Below, piece after piece: positions 4,213 to 27,353 of a stretch of DNA of 54,641 nucleotides. Source of the DNA: a virus (taxonomy: Duplodnaviria > Caudoviricetes); the IMG/VR virus record IMGVR_UViG_3300007276_000061, positions 1-54,641 of that record; one strand, written 5' to 3'. The translations under genes and the position numbers were made by a program. Position 1 is the first letter of the stretch. Every line of letters begins with the position of its first letter. The notes under the pieces were generated by a model, which saw only the letters and a program-made list of their open reading frames with translations, was not told the DNA's origin and ran no database searches.

Positions 4213-4965
4213 TTAGTTTAATTCTCCAATAAAGGTTTGTAGATTATCTACGATTGTTACGCCAGATGCTCTGGCTTTTAAGGTTTTATCGGTCTCACGA
4301 CCAGATTCGTTAACTAGAATAGTAACATCTTTTGTCAAACTATCCTTTACTTTGAACCCAAGTTCCACTAGGATTTTTGTAGCTTCTGCTTTAGTTTTGA
4401 AACTACTCAGTTTACCTGTAATGCAGATGGTTCCTCGATCACTAGAGGTGGACTTGGATTTTTCAAATTCGAAATTAAAGGGCAGATGCGAGTATTTATC
4501 AAAGTCGCTATCCAGCCACGCAATTAAGTTCGAAGTAGCTTTTTCTCCCAGACCGGCTTCCTTACATATATCTGCGTCAATATCAAAGATACTTTCGCAA
4601 ACTTTAGAAAGCTTATCCGATGCTGTTTTCCCGATTAGAGAAATACCAAAGGCTGGCAGCACTGTGTTAAGCGGTTCTTTTTCAGATTTTATGATTTCTT
4701 CAAACAGCTTTACAGCAATTTTTGCTGACCCTAGGCGGATGGTAATATAAGCAATATCAAGTTCATAGATTTCTTCTATTCTATTGATATCTAACTTCTC
4801 AATCGCAGCAGGACCCAATCCTTTAATCTTCAAAGTCTTAGCGAAATGTTCTATTCGCTTTTGACCTGTAGCTGTACAGTCTGGGCCTCTACAATAAAGA
4901 GTATCGTTTGACCACTCGAGAGGATAATCACAGCTTGGACAATTTGTCGGTGGTTTAATCATCAA
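4213..4965 (-). CDS. NAD-dependent DNA ligase, C-terminal subunit (Zn finger, HhH, BRCT)
   Basis: CPSC...C Zn finger, IKGLG HhH, ICITGKL...LVNESG BRCT. Confidence 0.88.
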   Translation of the reverse strand: MMIKPPTNCPSCDYPLEWSNDTLYCRGPDCTATGQKRIEHFAKTLKIKGLGPAAIEKLDINRIEEIYELDIAYITIRLGSAKIAVKLFEEIIKSEKEPLNTVLPAFGISLIGKTASDKLSKVCESIFDIDADICKEAGLGEKATSNLIAWLDSDFDKYSHLPFNFEFEKSKSTSSDRGTICITGKLSSFKTKAEATKILVELGFKVKDSLTKDVTILVNESGRETDKTLKARASGVTIVDNLQTFIGELN

Positions 4966-5057
4966 TCTCTCGTGTCATTCAATATAAACATAATAGCCGG
5001 TTTTAGGGTCTGAGTCAAGAACCATTTTTTGGAAGGTCTGACCAAATGATCAATGAG

Positions 5058-5426
5058 TTAAATAGATTTAGGCAGCTCGGCCAATATATCATTTAACTTT
5101 TCAATTTGGAAGAGTTCAGTATGTCCACCAAAACGCCATGGAGACTTATATTTGTAATCTGAAAAACTCTCGTGCATCCATTGCTCTAGATGATATATAT
5201 CTTCTAGCGGACCAGGGACTACTTTCTGAATACGTATTTCATATCCAGTGAATCCTGCCGAACGTTTGATTACATCCTTCCAGTTCTTGCCTTTGGCTAT
5301 ACCAACTTTAACGCAGACTCTCTTCTGCGTTTTCTTCTCCACTAACACCACACAATAGAGGACCGCTGGCTTCTGGGTCTCCTCCGGGTTGTTCTTGAAA
5401 TACGTCTCGTTGTAAAGTCCAGGCAT
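5058..5426 (-). CDS. Stand-alone T5orf172/GIY-YIG-like domain protein
   Basis: PAVLY...KVGIA...LEQ..H...GHTELF pattern matches C-termini of the three Zn-ribbon endonucleases in this window. Confidence 0.5.
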   Translation of the reverse strand: MPGLYNETYFKNNPEETQKPAVLYCVVLVEKKTQKRVCVKVGIAKGKNWKDVIKRSAGFTGYEIRIQKVVPGPLEDIYHLEQWMHESFSDYKYKSPWRFGGHTELFQIEKLNDILAELPKSI

Positions 5427-8238: not shown

Positions 8239-8607
8239 TTACTTAGATGCTTCTTCAATGACAGTGGCCAGATAGACCGCTGCCTTACCCGTCAGCTTAG
8301 AAACAATTTCTGAATCTACGGTTCCGCCAGCGGCTTCAATAGCTGCCGTTAGCTTAGCGTGAGCGTCTTCCTTGCTAACGCGGGTGCTGCCACCTTCCTT
8401 CGCGGAAGTGGAAGTCTTCTTGGCCGAAGCAGCTGCTTCCTTCTTGACGTAAACGCCAGCTTTAGAAAGAATCATACGAACGCCATTGGCAGTTTCGCCC
8501 AGCTTCTCAGCAATTTCTTTTACGATTTCCATCGAGTTTTCTGGAGTCGGCGACGCCGCCTCATACATCTCAATGGCACTCGCTTTAGTTTCGTCAGTCC
8601 AAGCCAT
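8239..8607 (-). CDS. T5 D3-like DNA-binding protein
   Basis: WTDE...IAEKLGETANGVRMILSKAGVY HTH; RBS AGGAGAG; own promoter; T5 synteny. Confidence 0.65.
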   Translation of the reverse strand: MAWTDETKASAIEMYEAASPTPENSMEIVKEIAEKLGETANGVRMILSKAGVYVKKEAAASAKKTSTSAKEGGSTRVSKEDAHAKLTAAIEAAGGTVDSEIVSKLTGKAAVYLATVIEEASK

Positions 8608-8637
8608 GTTTAGCTCTCCTTAATTAATTGAATATGT

Positions 8638-8666
8638 AGTATAGATGATTATAGCTTGCAAGTCAA
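8638..8666 (-). promoter_or_regulatory. sigma70-type promoter, representative of about 30 near-consensus minus-strand promoters
   Basis: TTGACT-17-TATACT; similar sites with -35 near 5015, 8830, 13563, 13808, 18478, 19795, 20156, 21378, 21470, 22568, 27354, 28953, 30857, 34648, 35695, 38349, 40198, 43821, 47983, 49976, 51910. Confidence 0.8.
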
Positions 8667-8693
8667 GTGTTATTTTTTGATTGCTTTGATTAT

Positions 8694-8798
8694 TTAGATA
8701 AGCTGCATAGCCCATAGGCCAAAGGCCCAACCGAAAATCCAGATTAGACCAAAAGGCAAAGCAAAGTTCAGCCAAAAGTTCTTTTTCTGTTTTCTCAT
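8694..8798 (-). CDS. 34-aa membrane peptide, probably leaderless
   Basis: MRKQKKNFWLNFALPFGLIWIFGWAFGLWAMQLI; ATG 6 nt after TATAGT of a TTGACT-17 promoter. Confidence 0.5.
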   Translation of the reverse strand: MRKQKKNFWLNFALPFGLIWIFGWAFGLWAMQLI

Positions 8799-8893
8799 TC
8801 TAATACTATACCGCGTCTGAGGATCGAAGTCAACACTTGAGTTAGGTAACGCGTAAAATTATCGCTGAAATGCGATGGTCGGCGCATGACGTG

Positions 8894-14812: not shown

Positions 14813-16300
14813 CTACCAGTCGTACCGCGGTACATTAACTGTTTGCAGCATGATTGCTTCAGGGCTAAACTTATCTAGGTCAGCTGCAAGAATCGCCTTC
14901 ATAGTTGATGGCGAGAAACCTGAAACCAGAGCAACACCCTTCTCATTGAAGCGAACAGGTTGACGGTCGCCCGTCGCGTTGAGGTTCCAGAACACAACCG
15001 CAGGCATTTGATACCCAGCAGCTTCATACTTCCGACGAATCATCTGCAAAGCAGTATCATCGTAGGCTACGCAACCGTTAAATTGCATATCCGAGAAGAT
15101 CAGAAGAATTTTGGGCATGTCTGCCTCAGCTACGTTACCCCGAAGAGCTGTAGTCAGAAGTAGATCGAATGCGGCGTGCAGGTTCGTACCGAAATCCCAA
15201 TGCAGTTTTGACATTGCATTAAGACGCTCAGAAAGAGAACCACTGATCTTTTCCAGCTTCGGAGAAGCAGAGAAAGTCATAACAAGGTCCTTGAAAGCTC
15301 CCTTGTTCTTACCTGAAGTATACAGTCCCAGAGAAACTGCAACGTCAAGTCCAGTTACAGAACCAGCAACAGGCGTACCCATTGAACCGGAAGTATCTAC
15401 AACTGGTAGAACTGAGGCACCATTCATATAGTCCGGCAGAGCTTCCCACATCGCATCAGCCACCGTAGTGTCCTTATTTGCGTAGTGGTTAATATCGCCG
15501 TAGTATGAAGAATAATAGCTTCTAGCACCATAGTTATTAGAAGCACGAGCACCGCCAAGCATACGAACTATGTCGTATGGGTAAACAGCCGAAGCGTTTA
15601 CCTTCGCAATCTTAGGATCGCCCTTTTTCAGAGCTTCCTTATAAGCTGCAAATGCTTCTGGAGCGCGCTTATGGAAGGCAGTCATGTAACGAGACATAGC
15701 TACCGAAGGAACGTGCGAGAAGTTGATTGACTCGAATTCACGAGCACACATCTTCGTTTCAACAACGTCAGTCAGCTTAACTAGAAGCTTACGATAACGC
15801 TTAGGCGTAAGCCCAAGGAAGTTACGCAGTTCTGCTGCAACCACACCCTTACGAGGCGACCACTTAGCTGCAAGACCGTTGCCTTCCGACAGCGCCTTAG
15901 CAACAATAGTATAAGCACGTTGCTTAACTTCGTAGTTAGTGAAGATGAACAGGTCGTCGAAACGACCAATTTCAGCAACATTATCTAGAATGTGTGAATC
16001 AACCAGAATATCTGGATTCGTTAGTTCAAGATGCTTCAGAATGTTGCGGAAGATTTGGCGTTCACCTTGCCCACTACGAACATCACGAGCATATTGTGCG
16101 ATACGAAGCGCTACATCGGGGTTTTCCCGGAAAGCTGCTTCAAACATCGGAACGACATTCTTACCACGTTGGAGCGAGCCAAAAAGGTCCACGTTAGCGT
16201 TAAGAGTCGACTTTAGAGTGCGCATACCATTGTCAGTACGCGCGTAAGCGCGTTGAGCTTGGTTAGCAGTTGCTTGAACTGCATCAGCGAAAGTATTCAT
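14813..16300 (-). CDS. DUF2828-type, TROVE/Ro60-like protein with C-terminal vWA domain
   Basis: RDVRSGQGERQIF, AAKWSPR, SHVPSVAM, VYPYDIV, MIDAS DTSGSM, GTNLHAAFDLLL, FSDMQF, VFWNL, LVSGFS; RBS AAGGA. Confidence 0.85.
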   Translation of the reverse strand: MNTFADAVQATANQAQRAYARTDNGMRTLKSTLNANVDLFGSLQRGKNVVPMFEAAFRENPDVALRIAQYARDVRSGQGERQIFRNILKHLELTNPDILVDSHILDNVAEIGRFDDLFIFTNYEVKQRAYTIVAKALSEGNGLAAKWSPRKGVVAAELRNFLGLTPKRYRKLLVKLTDVVETKMCAREFESINFSHVPSVAMSRYMTAFHKRAPEAFAAYKEALKKGDPKIAKVNASAVYPYDIVRMLGGARASNNYGARSYYSSYYGDINHYANKDTTVADAMWEALPDYMNGASVLPVVDTSGSMGTPVAGSVTGLDVAVSLGLYTSGKNKGAFKDLVMTFSASPKLEKISGSLSERLNAMSKLHWDFGTNLHAAFDLLLTTALRGNVAEADMPKILLIFSDMQFNGCVAYDDTALQMIRRKYEAAGYQMPAVVFWNLNATGDRQPVRFNEKGVALVSGFSPSTMKAILAADLDKFSPEAIMLQTVNVPRYDW

Positions 16301-16328
16301 TGTATTTCTTCCTTTTCTATGAAAATGT

Positions 16329-16390
16329 CAGATTCGTTTGAGTCGCTAGACATCCAAAGTTAAGCGGTTTTTGTTTGCTGAACCGAATCT
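16329..16390 (-). ncRNA. Array unit 1 (Y-RNA-like)
   Basis: AGATTCG-GT-TCAGCAA...CGAATCT-G. Confidence 0.7.
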
Positions 16391-16400
16391 ATAAATGTGT

Positions 16401-16486
16401 CAGAATGAATTGGTGAGCCTTTTAGCAACGTACTCAAGTTCTGGTAACGGGGCAACCCCGTCTGTTTGGTTTGCAGTCTTCATTCT
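16401..16486 (-). ncRNA. Array unit 2
   Basis: AGAATGAA-G-ACTGCAA...TTCATTCT-G; internal ACGGGG/CCCCGT hairpin. Confidence 0.7.
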
Positions 16487-16495
16487 TAATAATAA

Positions 16496-16681: not shown

Positions 16682-16710
16682 AGTATAATTGACTTTACCA
16701 TGAAAGTCAA
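16682..16710 (-). promoter_or_regulatory. sigma70 promoter for units 1-3 and the DUF2828 gene
   Basis: TTGACT-17-TATACT; -35 lies in a TTGACTTT/AAAGTCAA inverted repeat. Confidence 0.8.
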
Positions 16711-16721
16711 GAGAAATTTAA

Positions 16722-16939
16722 CAGGTTCCCGTTTTTCGTGCTCTACCATTGAGCTAACCCTCCATGGTTGGATACATACTTTAAGAACCTTCACTTCTAT
16801 AGAAGCTACTCCGCGCCCGGTTTTAGCTGTAGCCAGCCCCAAAGCCCTTCTTCGTAATATGTATCCAATGGTGGAGGATATTGGAATCGAACCAATAACA
16901 ACGAGCTTCGTAGGCTAATTGAGTTGCGGTTGAGAACCT
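16722..16939 (-). ncRNA. Array unit 4, containing a circularly permuted tRNA
   Basis: AGGTTCTC-A-ACCGCAA...GGGAACCT-G; internal order T arm, acceptor 3' + CCA, insert, acceptor 5', D arm. Confidence 0.8.
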
Positions 16940-16949
16940 AAGAATTACA

Positions 16950-17040
16950 CAGGATACTATAAAACGGATTTGAACCGCACTGTTTGATTAAGAGTCAAAT
17001 GCTCTACCATTGAGCTATAATGGGTTGCTGTGAGTATCCT
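16950..17040 (-). ncRNA. Array unit 5, containing D/anticodon(CTT)/T arms
   Basis: AGGATACT-C-ACAGCAA...TAGCTCAATGGTAGAGC..TTTGA-CTCTTAA-TCAAA..GCGGTTCAAATCCG...AGTATCCT-G; no CCA. Confidence 0.8.
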
Positions 17041-17105: not shown

Positions 17106-17113
17106 AATTAGAA

Positions 17114-17169
17114 CAGGCTAGTGCTCTAGGAGCGTTCATATATGCCATGGTGGTATGCTGAACTAGCCT
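17114..17169 (-). ncRNA. Array unit 7
   Basis: AGGCTAGT-TCAGCA...ACTAGCCT-G. Confidence 0.7.
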
Positions 17170-17175
17170 TAAACT

Positions 17176-17250: not shown

Positions 17251-17334
17251 TGGTGGGCAGTACAGGGTTCGAACCTGTCATGCTTACGCGGCGGATTTAC
17301 AGTCCGCTGTCCGTCCACTCGGAACATACTACCC
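17251..17334 (-). tRNA. tRNA-Tyr(GTA)
   Basis: Loop CTGTAAA, variable arm, CCA. Confidence 0.92.
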
Positions 17335-17534: not shown

Positions 17535-17626
17535 TGGTAGGGACAGTGGGATTCGAACCCACAATGTGAACTTATCAGTAACAGATTTTAAGTCTGCCGC
17601 GTTTCAACCAGTTTCGCCATGCCCCC
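17535..17626 (-). tRNA. tRNA-Leu(TAA)
   Basis: Loop CTTAAAA, long variable arm, A73, CCA. Confidence 0.92.
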
Positions 17627-18298
17627 AAACTCTTCCGGCAATTTATTTCCTTTACTAAGGTTTGCTTCTGCCGTTAAATATTGTAAGTTATCTAATACAT
17701 GTAATCCGCATACATTCTCTCCCTGTAAAGGATAATAGTGGTCTACATGGTGTCCTTTAGGACAATCTTCATAGAATTTTAGTATAGCTAGTTCGTCAGA
17801 CCACTGCACGGTTCGCTTCAATAATAGCGCTCTACGTTTAGCATTTCTAGCGTTGAAACTAGCTCTATTGTCTATTAAATATTGTTCATGGTAATTCTTA
17901 TTTTTAGCGTACCAATCTTTATTACTTATTTGTCTACATGCTTTACACTGGTGGTAATAATTATCAGCAGACGAACGATCCTGTGAAAAGCTATTCTTTA
18001 GCAGAAAGCTTTTGCATGAAGAGCATTTTTTATAGTCTGATTGCTTTATAAACCAGTGCTCCCAGCTTTCACCACCACCAGTCAAAGAAATATTTGGAAA
18101 AAGCTTCTTTATGTTTCCTATAAATGTCTTTTCTGACCGCCCTAATAAATTCATCGCTTTAGGGCTTGAATGTGCGATAAACAAAGCATCTAAAAGTTCG
18201 TCTATAGTTATTGCCGGTTTATTCCCCCATTTTTTAGCAAAAATAGTTTCTGGCGTTAAACCTAAATTTTTATATATGCTTTTCTTAACTTCAATCAT
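17588..18298 (-). CDS. HNH homing endonuclease
   Basis: CSSC...CKAC; HVDHYYPL...GLHVLDNLQYL...NLSKGN; own promoter 18304-18332. Confidence 0.85.
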   Translation of the reverse strand: MIEVKKSIYKNLGLTPETIFAKKWGNKPAITIDELLDALFIAHSSPKAMNLLGRSEKTFIGNIKKLFPNISLTGGGESWEHWFIKQSDYKKCSSCKSFLLKNSFSQDRSSADNYYHQCKACRQISNKDWYAKNKNYHEQYLIDNRASFNARNAKRRALLLKRTVQWSDELAILKFYEDCPKGHHVDHYYPLQGENVCGLHVLDNLQYLTAEANLSKGNKLPEEFGGMAKLVETRQT

Positions 18299-26823: not shown

Positions 26824-26844
26824 TCTAGTTCCTTTAAAAGTTAA

Positions 26845-27240
26845 GTGGCCCGTTCTGTTGCCAGGTGGAACCCATACCCCGGAAACTCAAGCCGCTAGGC
26901 GGAGTTCCGATACAAAGTTATCGTTTGCATTTATAAAGTGACACTTTGTCAGGCAATAATCTCAAACTATCTCATTTCACGTCAGTCGATTGCCAAAACG
27001 CCCACATCATAAATTCTATCAGGTCTTTACACTACAGCTAGTATCACCTATGCGACGATTGCCCTAAATCGCTCCCTCCGAGTTATGAGTCGGCCGTGCT
27101 TGGAGGCTTACAAGACCTCAGGACTAAACTTTTCGATATAGGGACAAGTCCTTGTAAAACCAGCCTATATCTAGATAGAATTTATGGTGTAGGCGAGGAG
27201 AGTCGAACTCCTGTCCTGCACGTCTTTTGATAATCGTCAC
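26845..27240 (-). ncRNA. ssrA: Circularly permuted two-piece tmRNA
   Basis: Acceptor piece (T arm, CGCCTAC-A-CCA, ends 27185) precedes coding piece (starts GTGGGCG at 27005); G3:U70; tag 26928-26887 reads ANDNFVSELRLAA*. Confidence 0.93.
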
Positions 27241-27353
27241 CGATTATAATGTAACTCTCTACAGAGAGTATTATTTAACGAATCACTCGAAGAGCACTCA
27301 TTATTTAGTCCTTTCATTTGATTTAGATATAATATCAAAATCCGGGACTAAAG

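Follow-up and report, generated by a model that had tools for sequence, protein, structure and literature searches.

Bacteria and some phages encode Y RNAs beside the gene for Ro60 (Chen et al. 2014, PMC4201824). In the YrlA class of these RNAs (Rfam RF02553), a terminal stem is described as being followed by a T arm, a closed acceptor-like stem and a D arm. The loops of both arms resemble those of tRNA, the Levitt pair covaries (G:C or A:U), and the gene lies next to that of a Ro60-type protein; GNCGAAN0-1G is given as the Ro60-binding motif of the YrlA terminal stem, and binding by Ro60 in vivo and tRNA-type modifications count among the features of the class (PMC4201824). The YrlA of Mycobacterium smegmatis has a 7-base-pair (bp) acceptor stem and is cut by RNase P in vitro, and in vivo it is present in two pieces, of which the 5' one has CCA at its end and both are recovered with Rsr (PMC4201824). 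Here we describe unit 4, an RNA element at 16720-16942 on the minus strand of a 54.6-kb virus-record fragment (IMG/VR IMGVR_UViG_3300007276_000061; the whole stretch of 54,641 nucleotides is called the window). Unit 4 shares with YrlA the order of the parts, the tRNA-like loops, the covarying Levitt pair and, with the M. smegmatis RNA, the 7-bp acceptor stem, and the adjacent gene encodes a protein with a Ro60 fold. It differs from YrlA, as far as that class is described in PMC4201824, in having a CAGCAA-type handle motif, Rfam scores below the gathering score, a CCA that is encoded rather than added, a 105-nucleotide (nt) insert in the acceptor loop and a presumed partner protein that belongs to DUF2828 and not to Pfam TROVE, and in being one of seven units.

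The Ro60 protein of Thermus phage phiLo binds two upstream Y-like RNAs and the host PNPase (PMC12135203). Like the window, phiLo combines a phage Ro60-fold protein with Y-like RNAs (Yrl1 and Yrl2) directly upstream of the gene; unlike unit 4, the two Yrls had been selected for a CGAA motif together with a stem-bulge-stem fold, and the accessible part of the article describes no tRNA-like module in them (PMC12135203). A survey of jumbo phages notes TROVE proteins with a tRNA-like partner (PMC7824862), and in a paper on Listeria phage CKA15, abundant RNAs near an Rsr-like gene were proposed as possible Y RNAs (PMC12282133). The PhageMaP preprint describes gp130 of phage Bas63 as a Ro60-like protein with a role against the Ppl defence system, and its authors raise the possibility that Y RNAs are hidden among the annotated tRNAs, no RNA being named in the available portion of the preprint (PMC11482910). 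Our literature search on DUF2828 found no phage or RNA work, the supplementary phage list of Chen et al. 2014 lying outside its reach. For the DUF2828 branch, a partnership with Y RNAs has so far only been guessed in the literature, to the extent that these sources are accessible (PMC12282133, PMC11482910).

Anatomy and family of a permuted tRNA-like RNA

A base-by-base reading showed that unit 4 is a permuted tRNA-like RNA. From 5' to 3' on the minus strand, an 8-bp handle opens the chain and is followed by a small hairpin, then the T arm, then the 7-bp acceptor stem; the D arm comes next and leads to the return strand of the handle. Between the two acceptor strands lie ACCA and then a structured insert of 105 nt. 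The features of unit 4 are as follows.

16932-16942, minus strand: handle 5' strand with the conserved lead-in U-U-(C)-U; the 8 nt at 16939-16932 pair with 16730-16723 in the minimum free energy (MFE) fold
16917-16931, minus strand: single-stranded linker with the family motif, CCGCAA here and CAGCAA in most relatives
16904-16916, minus strand: small hairpin with a 3-bp stem and a 7-nt loop, the loop differing between close relatives
16897-16904, minus strand: inner-stem strand (16904-16901), which pairs with 16739-16736, and the equivalent of the variable loop (16900-16897, 4 nt)
16880-16896, minus strand: T arm with a 5-bp stem and a canonical 7-nt T loop
16869-16879, minus strand: 7-nt acceptor 3' strand followed by the discriminator A and an encoded CCA, from the sequence reading
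16764-16868, minus strand: insert of 105 nt in the acceptor-stem loop
16757-16763, minus strand: acceptor 5' strand, with a predicted RNase P site 5' of G16763
16739-16756, minus strand: equivalent of U8-A9 and D arm, 18 nt, with a 4-bp stem and a 7-nt loop containing GG
16720-16738, minus strand: A-rich 3' linker and handle 3' strand (16730-16723), then G-U-U, from the reading and the MFE fold

The T arm, the acceptor 3' strand with its A and CCA, the insert with its closing inverted repeat (16868-16768), the acceptor 5' strand, the D arm and the handle were all found where the original prediction, made from the sequence alone, had placed them. That prediction also had the handle replacing the anticodon loop. 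The handle does occupy that place, but the 3-bp hairpin (16916-16904) and the 4-bp inner stem, both absent from the prediction, indicate that it replaces the lower anticodon arm and not only the loop.

The handle of unit 4 includes one G-U among its 8 bp (16939-16932 with 16730-16723). The two acceptor strands pair at all seven positions, also with one G-U, which is replaced by A-U in two related contigs, L006 and L086. In L006, the T arm, the acceptor 3' strand and ACCA are identical to those of the window (28/28 bases). The Levitt pair of the window is formed by A16749 and U16897 (A:U), and the 4-bp inner stem corresponds to the helix that the Rfam YrlA model pairs in the L086 orthologue. 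The 18-nt D-arm stretch recurs in unit c of the same array.

The loop of the small hairpin (16907-16913, minus strand) resembles an anticodon loop in having U at position 2 and A at position 6. It varies in contigs of the sequencing runs X5, X9 and X24, and is the most variable spot of unit 4 among the window, L006, L086 and these contigs, the stem being kept. The hairpin at 16916-16904 was considered as a true anticodon arm and was rejected, since its stem has only 3 bp and its loop changes among near-identical relatives in which the acceptor stem is constant.

Permuted RNAs of this kind were sought beside DUF2828 genes, in 85 loci that were fetched through the protein gene and then scanned for the motif. 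The same permuted order was found beside DUF2828 genes in many contigs, mostly with a short acceptor loop. Among 11 seed RNAs from such places, 20 of 25 consensus pairs carried compensatory changes, and the C, G, C and A of the linker motif were invariant (11/11). A covariance model, R1, was built solely from RNAs of this kind on other contigs. Of 86 sources searched with it, 54 contained matches at E ≤ 0.01, 73 in total, and every match had the same strand as the gene; 21 rows scored at least 45 bits, 11 of them seeds, and some weak rows were merely adjacent ordinary tRNAs (e.g., in L026). In an alignment of 19 sequences, 95.1% of the cells pair, compared with 34-45% in slid controls, and none of 500 shuffles reached any of five measures. 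The handle helix covaries across the family, and all 8 pairs of the acceptor helix show compensatory changes. U8 is present in 18, A14 in 19 and the T loop in 18 of the 19 aligned relatives, and the Levitt pair 15:48 covaries, being A:U in 10 and G:C in 7.

In the whole 54.6-kb window, unit 4 was the top match of R1 (37 bits, E 3.5e-5, model positions 45-114, filters off) and was aligned with a 102-nt insertion in the acceptor loop, which shows that its arrangement is not a chance one. Because of the insert, unit 4 and its L006 copy were missed at default filters and were found only with the filters off. L006, the protein of which is 98% identical to that of the window, carries the same RNA including the insert. 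The orthologue in L086, an 87-kb viral contig, scored 112.9 bits and had served as a seed. The same type of RNA was found in Mycobacterium phage Enceladus, at L087 3525-3653, beside the gene for a "Ro-like RNA binding protein" (R1 69.5 bits). In E. coli phage Bas63, an unannotated R1 match of 51.6 bits (L088 5924-6056) lies between tRNA genes, about 1 kb from bas63_0130. The product of bas63_0130 shares 40% identity with the window's protein across 96% of its length, and a tRNA array adjoins the gene, as in the window; in contrast to unit 4, the Bas63 element has no CCA and no insert. The family and its model point to unannotated RNAs in the tractable phages Bas63, S13 and Enceladus. We judge the covariation-supported RNA family, together with a search model for the very common DUF2828 proteins of phages, to be a more interesting outcome than unit 4 itself.

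The Bas63 element overlaps two small opposite-strand open reading frames (ORFs), bas63_0137 and bas63_0138, which may be mis-annotations of the RNA gene. In Cronobacter phage S13 (L004), an annotated "tRNA-Ser" of 121 nt (4857-4977) and a "tRNA-OTHER" of 113 nt (4987-5099) have an un-permuted form of the family architecture: the anticodon arm is replaced by the family linkers and a handle closed by a tetraloop, and the acceptor end is open with a 3' CCA. The permuted form, also of the CCA type, follows at 5112-5253, and all three RNAs lie downstream of the DUF2828 gene of S13. A single RNA architecture thus exists side by side in permuted and un-permuted versions. In the family member at L015 3245-3360, the small 5' hairpin is missing, and the D arm is followed by a complete anticodon-like arm with a 5-bp stem and a 7-nt loop; the break point of the permutation therefore differs within the family.

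A Ro60-fold neighbour and the relation to YrlA

The presumed protein partner of unit 4 is encoded on the same strand.

14813-16300, minus strand: 495-amino-acid (aa) protein with DUF2828 and DUF7788 (vWA), presumed protein partner with a Ro60 fold (Pfam, PHROGs, Foldseek)

At E ≤ 0.01, DUF7788, DUF2828 and VWA_2 were the only Pfam families matched in this protein, and PHROGs placed it in phrog_850, "RNA-binding protein." An AlphaFold model from the single sequence was unusable (predicted local distance difference test [pLDDT] 40.7), and a model from an alignment of 49 sequences was of moderate quality (pLDDT 74.2; predicted template modeling score [pTM] 0.60). Foldseek against the PDB gave 13 matches at E ≤ 0.001, all of them Ro60/TROVE, over about 520 columns. 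The best match was the Ro60 of Thermus phage phiLo (E 6e-7; template modeling [TM] score 0.52-0.55), and in the shared fold, helical repeats form a ring, to which a vWA domain is joined at the C-terminal side. A profile search of the PDB sequences found only Ro60, weakly (E 0.085), and a single-sequence search of the PDB sequences with the 495-aa protein gave a chance match only. As judged from the predicted model, the neighbour of unit 4 has the Ro60 fold. The closer relatives of the protein, P0002-P0009, are 71-92% identical to it. Annotators of SEA-PHAGES label the mycobacteriophage members "Ro-like RNA binding protein." By tblastn, DUF2828 proteins were found in 711 of 50,697 phage records, and the carriers include Felix-O1-like, T4-like, Listeria P100-like, Staphylococcus and mycobacterial phages.

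The topology of YrlA had been invoked in the original prediction, and the comparison bears this out: the insert-free orthologue in L086 aligns over the whole Rfam YrlA (RF02553) model, and the neighbouring protein has the Ro60 fold. The L086 alignment scored 37.7 bits (E 4.5e-7 in a search of 261 nt), below the gathering score of 69, and its outer helices fit poorly. Sub-threshold YrlA matches were also found in L014, L018, L066 and L076, and the Enceladus RNA scored 39.8 bits. In this family, T-arm-like and D-arm-like stem-loops carry the tRNA-like conserved loop bases, and the Levitt pair 15:48 covaries in 17 of 19 relatives. The acceptor-like stem of unit 4 has 7 bp, with a loop enlarged by 105 nt, and the gene neighbour has a Ro60 fold, yet in Pfam it belongs to DUF2828/DUF7788 rather than to TROVE. 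The YrlA-like order, the tertiary signatures and the whole-model Rfam alignment of the L086 orthologue suggest that unit 4 works like YrlA and is related to it. We conclude that unit 4 is probably a divergent YrlA-class Y RNA, the core of which mimics the elbow and the acceptor arm of tRNA. Support for the YrlA reading comes from function and architecture and does not extend to strict membership in the Rfam family.

Several observations count against this assignment. The Rfam YrlA model did not match the window at E ≤ 10, and its gathering score of 69 was reached in none of the relatives tested, which scored 31.6-40.9 bits. The motif GNCGAAN0-1G is not found in the terminal stem of unit 4, which has the CAGCAA/CCGCAA type instead, and Pfam TROVE did not match the 495-aa protein at E ≤ 0.01. 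The 19-sequence alignment was fitted to R1 and contains the 11 seeds, and one of its rows (L004 4905-5030) spans two adjacent RNAs and not one permuted RNA. Since the protein gene was the basis on which the loci were selected, the control for co-occurrence is within-window only.

Both chain ends of unit 4 lie in the closing handle stem, at the place of the anticodon arm, and its acceptor stem is closed at the top. In the mechanism that we infer, the RNA would be expressed and the Ro60-like protein would bind the handle that the units share, and the L-shaped tRNA-like module would present a tRNA look-alike to a tRNA-recognising factor of the host or the phage, as a tether or a decoy. By analogy, candidates for this factor are exoribonucleases, enzymes of tRNA processing and defence nucleases. 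The insert is an independently folding extension of the acceptor loop just 3' of the encoded ACCA.

The acceptor-loop insert, the CCA end and competing explanations

Unit 4 is set apart from the known YrlA-type Y RNAs by an unusual extra domain of 105 bases. The insert folds with a 13-bp closing stem (16868-16856 with 16780-16768), beyond which lie an asymmetric internal loop, another stem and a group of three small hairpins, with an MFE of -34.6 kcal/mol (z -3.69), and none of 200 shuffles was as stable. Between the window and L006, 104 of the 105 bases of the insert are the same, and the adjacent gene has 40 changes at 496 third codon positions. This speaks for constraint on the insert at the sequence level, so that it probably adds a further functional domain; the comparison rests on two haplotypes in a mosaic region, which weakens the point.

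The orthologue in L086 has no insert, and its acceptor loop of 8 nt starts with ACCA. The L006 type is present in contigs of runs X5, X9 and X24; the insert is absent from two contigs of X9. Since it is missing in the close relative L086 and in these X9 contigs, the insert is not a core part of the RNA class; it is lineage-specific, present in the close relative L006 and not in L086. In L020, an unrelated insert of about 79 nt occupies this site, likewise after ACCA. No further copy of the 105-nt insert was found in the window or in the 86 loci, and in IMG/VR there was no exact 28-mer match apart from the virus's own records, which were set aside. A near-direct repeat flanks the insert (16872-16866 and 16769-16764). 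R1 gave no nested canonical handle in the insert on the minus strand. The internal loop of the insert contains ACGAAG, for which no claim is made, since the word CGAA in 105 nt is not beyond chance.

The 13-nt terminal inverted repeats, the near-direct repeat at both flanks and the empty orthologous loops of L086 and of two X9 contigs would also suit an origin of the insert by transposition or recombination, for instance as a miniature inverted-repeat element, which landed in a tolerant loop and is functionless or disables unit 4. We consider this quite unlikely. The searches of the window, the 86 loci and IMG/VR described above produced no second copy, 104 of 105 positions are conserved compared with about 8% change at third codon positions, and the independent insert of L020 at the same site argues for a permissive or selected site, not for one element. 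Hardly credible is an origin of the region as two decayed tRNA gene halves, the 3' half of one gene and the 5' half of the next, or as a permuted tRNA or tmRNA (transfer-messenger RNA) gene that yields a decoding tRNA or tmRNA. Three observations would favour it: the surrounding island comprises 24 tRNA calls, all but one of which have an encoded CCA, R1 gives weak false matches to ordinary tRNAs nearby, and Rfam tmRNA_permuted touches 16837-16896 (12.8 bits, E 4.5), a match that is below the threshold of 47 and covers only the T arm and part of the insert. However, the acceptor strands are complementary at 7 of 7 positions and the change from G-U to A-U in relatives keeps the pairing, the whole unit is enclosed by a covarying handle, and the 7-nt hairpin loop changes among near-identical relatives, the acceptor stem being unchanged. 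A normal-order cloverleaf with a 5-bp anticodon stem and a 7-nt loop is not found at 16720-16942, where the order is permuted, there is no 5-bp anticodon stem, and neither ARAGORN nor Rfam calls a tRNA. Unit 4 has no tag reading frame, and the real tmRNA of the window lies at 26844-27294. In the red alga Cyanidioschyzon merolae, permuted tRNA genes, in which the 3' half is encoded upstream of the 5' half, give complete decoding tRNAs via a circular intermediate; unlike these, unit 4 has no full anticodon arm.

The likeness to permuted tmRNA precursors, which the original prediction had also pointed out, is visible within the window, where the permuted tmRNA has a T arm, an acceptor 3' strand, ACCA, a segment of about 200 nt and an acceptor 5' strand. 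Unit 4 shares this order with two-piece tmRNA genes and differs from them in having no tag reading frame and no pseudoknots, the coding piece being replaced by the D arm and the handle. The tmRNA gene itself (26844-27294, minus strand) was matched by Rfam tmRNA_permuted with 79.5 bits and by alpha_tmRNA with 64.7 bits, has a tag frame ending in L-A-A, and was not called by ARAGORN.

Permuted tmRNA genes mature by excision, and a corresponding step was put forward for unit 4 in the original prediction. RNase P would cut 5' of G16763 and trimming would proceed to the CCA at 16869, giving a two-piece tRNA mimic held by the handle, with a free CCA end and with the insert released or degraded. Such a cut adds a maturation step to the YrlA reading and does not exclude it. 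By analogy, excision at the RNase P and CCA sites is plausible, and we regard it tentatively as a possibility. The 7-bp acceptor stem is followed by A-CCA, with U at position -1; the YrlA of M. smegmatis provides a precedent, with RNase P cleavage and a CCA-ending 5' half (PMC4201824). The permuted tmRNA of the window also has ACCA followed by a segment of about 200 nt. Nine of the 19 aligned members have NCCA here, as do the window and L006, although the stems covary, and both long inserts (window/L006 and L020) come directly after ACCA. The two un-permuted S13 RNAs, with an open acceptor end, a 3' CCA and a tetraloop-closed handle, suggest that a free CCA end together with a handle is a natural state of the family. 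Other evidence argues against the cut. A 236-nt contig of the metatranscriptome run X24, which may derive from DNA, spans both sites uncut (16747 to 16945, depth 3.1); the data from the sequencing runs are assembled contigs, which cannot show the ends, strand or level of an RNA and are uninformative where they leave parts uncovered. Ten of the 19 aligned members have no CCA, and in several a tetraloop closes the stem, so cleavage cannot be a property of the whole family. The conservation of the insert is that of a functional part and not that of a drifting, discarded spacer, and its 13-bp stem would hinder 3' exonucleases.

Aminoacylation of unit 4, in which the sequence reading found no G3:U70 and no anticodon arm, would be considerably less probable than the cut. 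Also unlikely is a wider proposal, in which unit 4 would mature like the two-piece tmRNA of the phage, the tethered CCA-ended ribonucleoprotein would be charged or would serve as a decoy or sponge for host defence enzymes directed at the acceptor ends or the bodies of tRNAs, and the 105-nt domain would become a separate small RNA. If this were true, the seven units of the array would supply various RNA decoys to a single protein platform, in keeping with the anti-defence effect that has been reported for the homologue in Bas63. For unit 4 as a divergent YrlA-class RNA, the insert shows that the acceptor loop of tRNA mimics tolerates whole extra domains. Together with the encoded CCA, which is often retained, and with the coexistence of permuted and un-permuted forms, this makes CCA-exposing cleavage of tRNA-mimic Y RNAs a directly testable question.

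The seven-unit array and its surroundings

Seven handle-bearing units were counted between tRNA-Tyr and the protein gene, and unit 4 is the fourth of them, in agreement with the position in the array that the original prediction had assigned to it. Five units were found by R1 (four handle matches and the core of unit 4), and unit e and the handle of unit 4 were found by reading. The other six units are as follows.

17111-17172, minus strand: unit a, handle and short module; R1 18.2 bits
17048-17108, minus strand: unit b; R1 24.3 bits, 64/65 the same in L006
16947-17043, minus strand: unit c, in which the handle encloses a tRNA-like module in normal order; R1 30.7 bits
16493-16671, minus strand: unit e, 7-bp handle and CAGCAA motif, about 175 nt; by reading only
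16398-16489, minus strand: unit f; R1 12.3 bits and reading
16326-16393, minus strand: unit g; R1 19.6 bits

Parts of unit e scored just 3.2 and 6.9 bits with R1. All seven units have the handle and the adjacent single-stranded CAGCAA-type motif, but different modules. The common handle consists of a lead-in U-U-A-G-G, a variable 5-bp core that covaries and a return strand C-C-U-G-U. CAGCAA occurs 4 times within 716 nt of this region, compared with 15 times on the same strand in the rest of the window, and each copy follows a short strand that has its complement 50-220 nt downstream, the paired sequences differing from unit to unit. Between the window and L006, identity is as low as 68-77% in units c, e and f, and the region is visibly mosaic.

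The module of unit c (16955-17024, minus strand) is called as tRNA-Lys(ctt) by ARAGORN and Rfam. It is the sole one of the 24 tRNA calls that has no encoded CCA, Rfam marks several mispairs in its acceptor stem, and in L006 it is replaced by a different tRNA-like module. It is probably a Y-RNA module and not a decoding tRNA.

The minus strand of the window holds 24 tRNA calls (ARAGORN), 23 of them with an encoded CCA, and the permuted tmRNA gene. Unit 4 lies inside about 950 nt of non-coding DNA, between tRNA-Tyr (17251-17334) and the 495-aa ORF (14813-16300), so that the array of Y-like RNAs, the phage tRNA island and the gene for the Ro60-fold DUF2828/vWA protein have a common strand. A nucleotide search of the phage collection with the 1-kb non-coding stretch gave no match. 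A putative promoter was found directly after unit 4.

16682-16710, minus strand: sigma-70-like promoter between unit 4 and unit e, with 10 of 12 consensus matches

Both of its hexamers are kept in L006 and L086, the spacer being different, and the count of promoter-like sites in the region is not above that of shuffles. The near-consensus sequence at this place suggests that units e to g and the DUF2828 gene may form a transcription unit of their own.

Within the tRNA island, an ORF of 236 aa (17588-18298, minus strand) has HNH and endonuclease VII-like PHROG matches, and its 3' end overlaps tRNA-Leu(taa) (17535-17626). The window has no match to GOLLD RNA. L086 carries a GOLLD RNA at 8382-8832 (Rfam 171.8 bits, gathering score 150) that encloses a tRNA at 8446-8519, and a weak match to a standard tmRNA was found in the same contig at 7237-7311.

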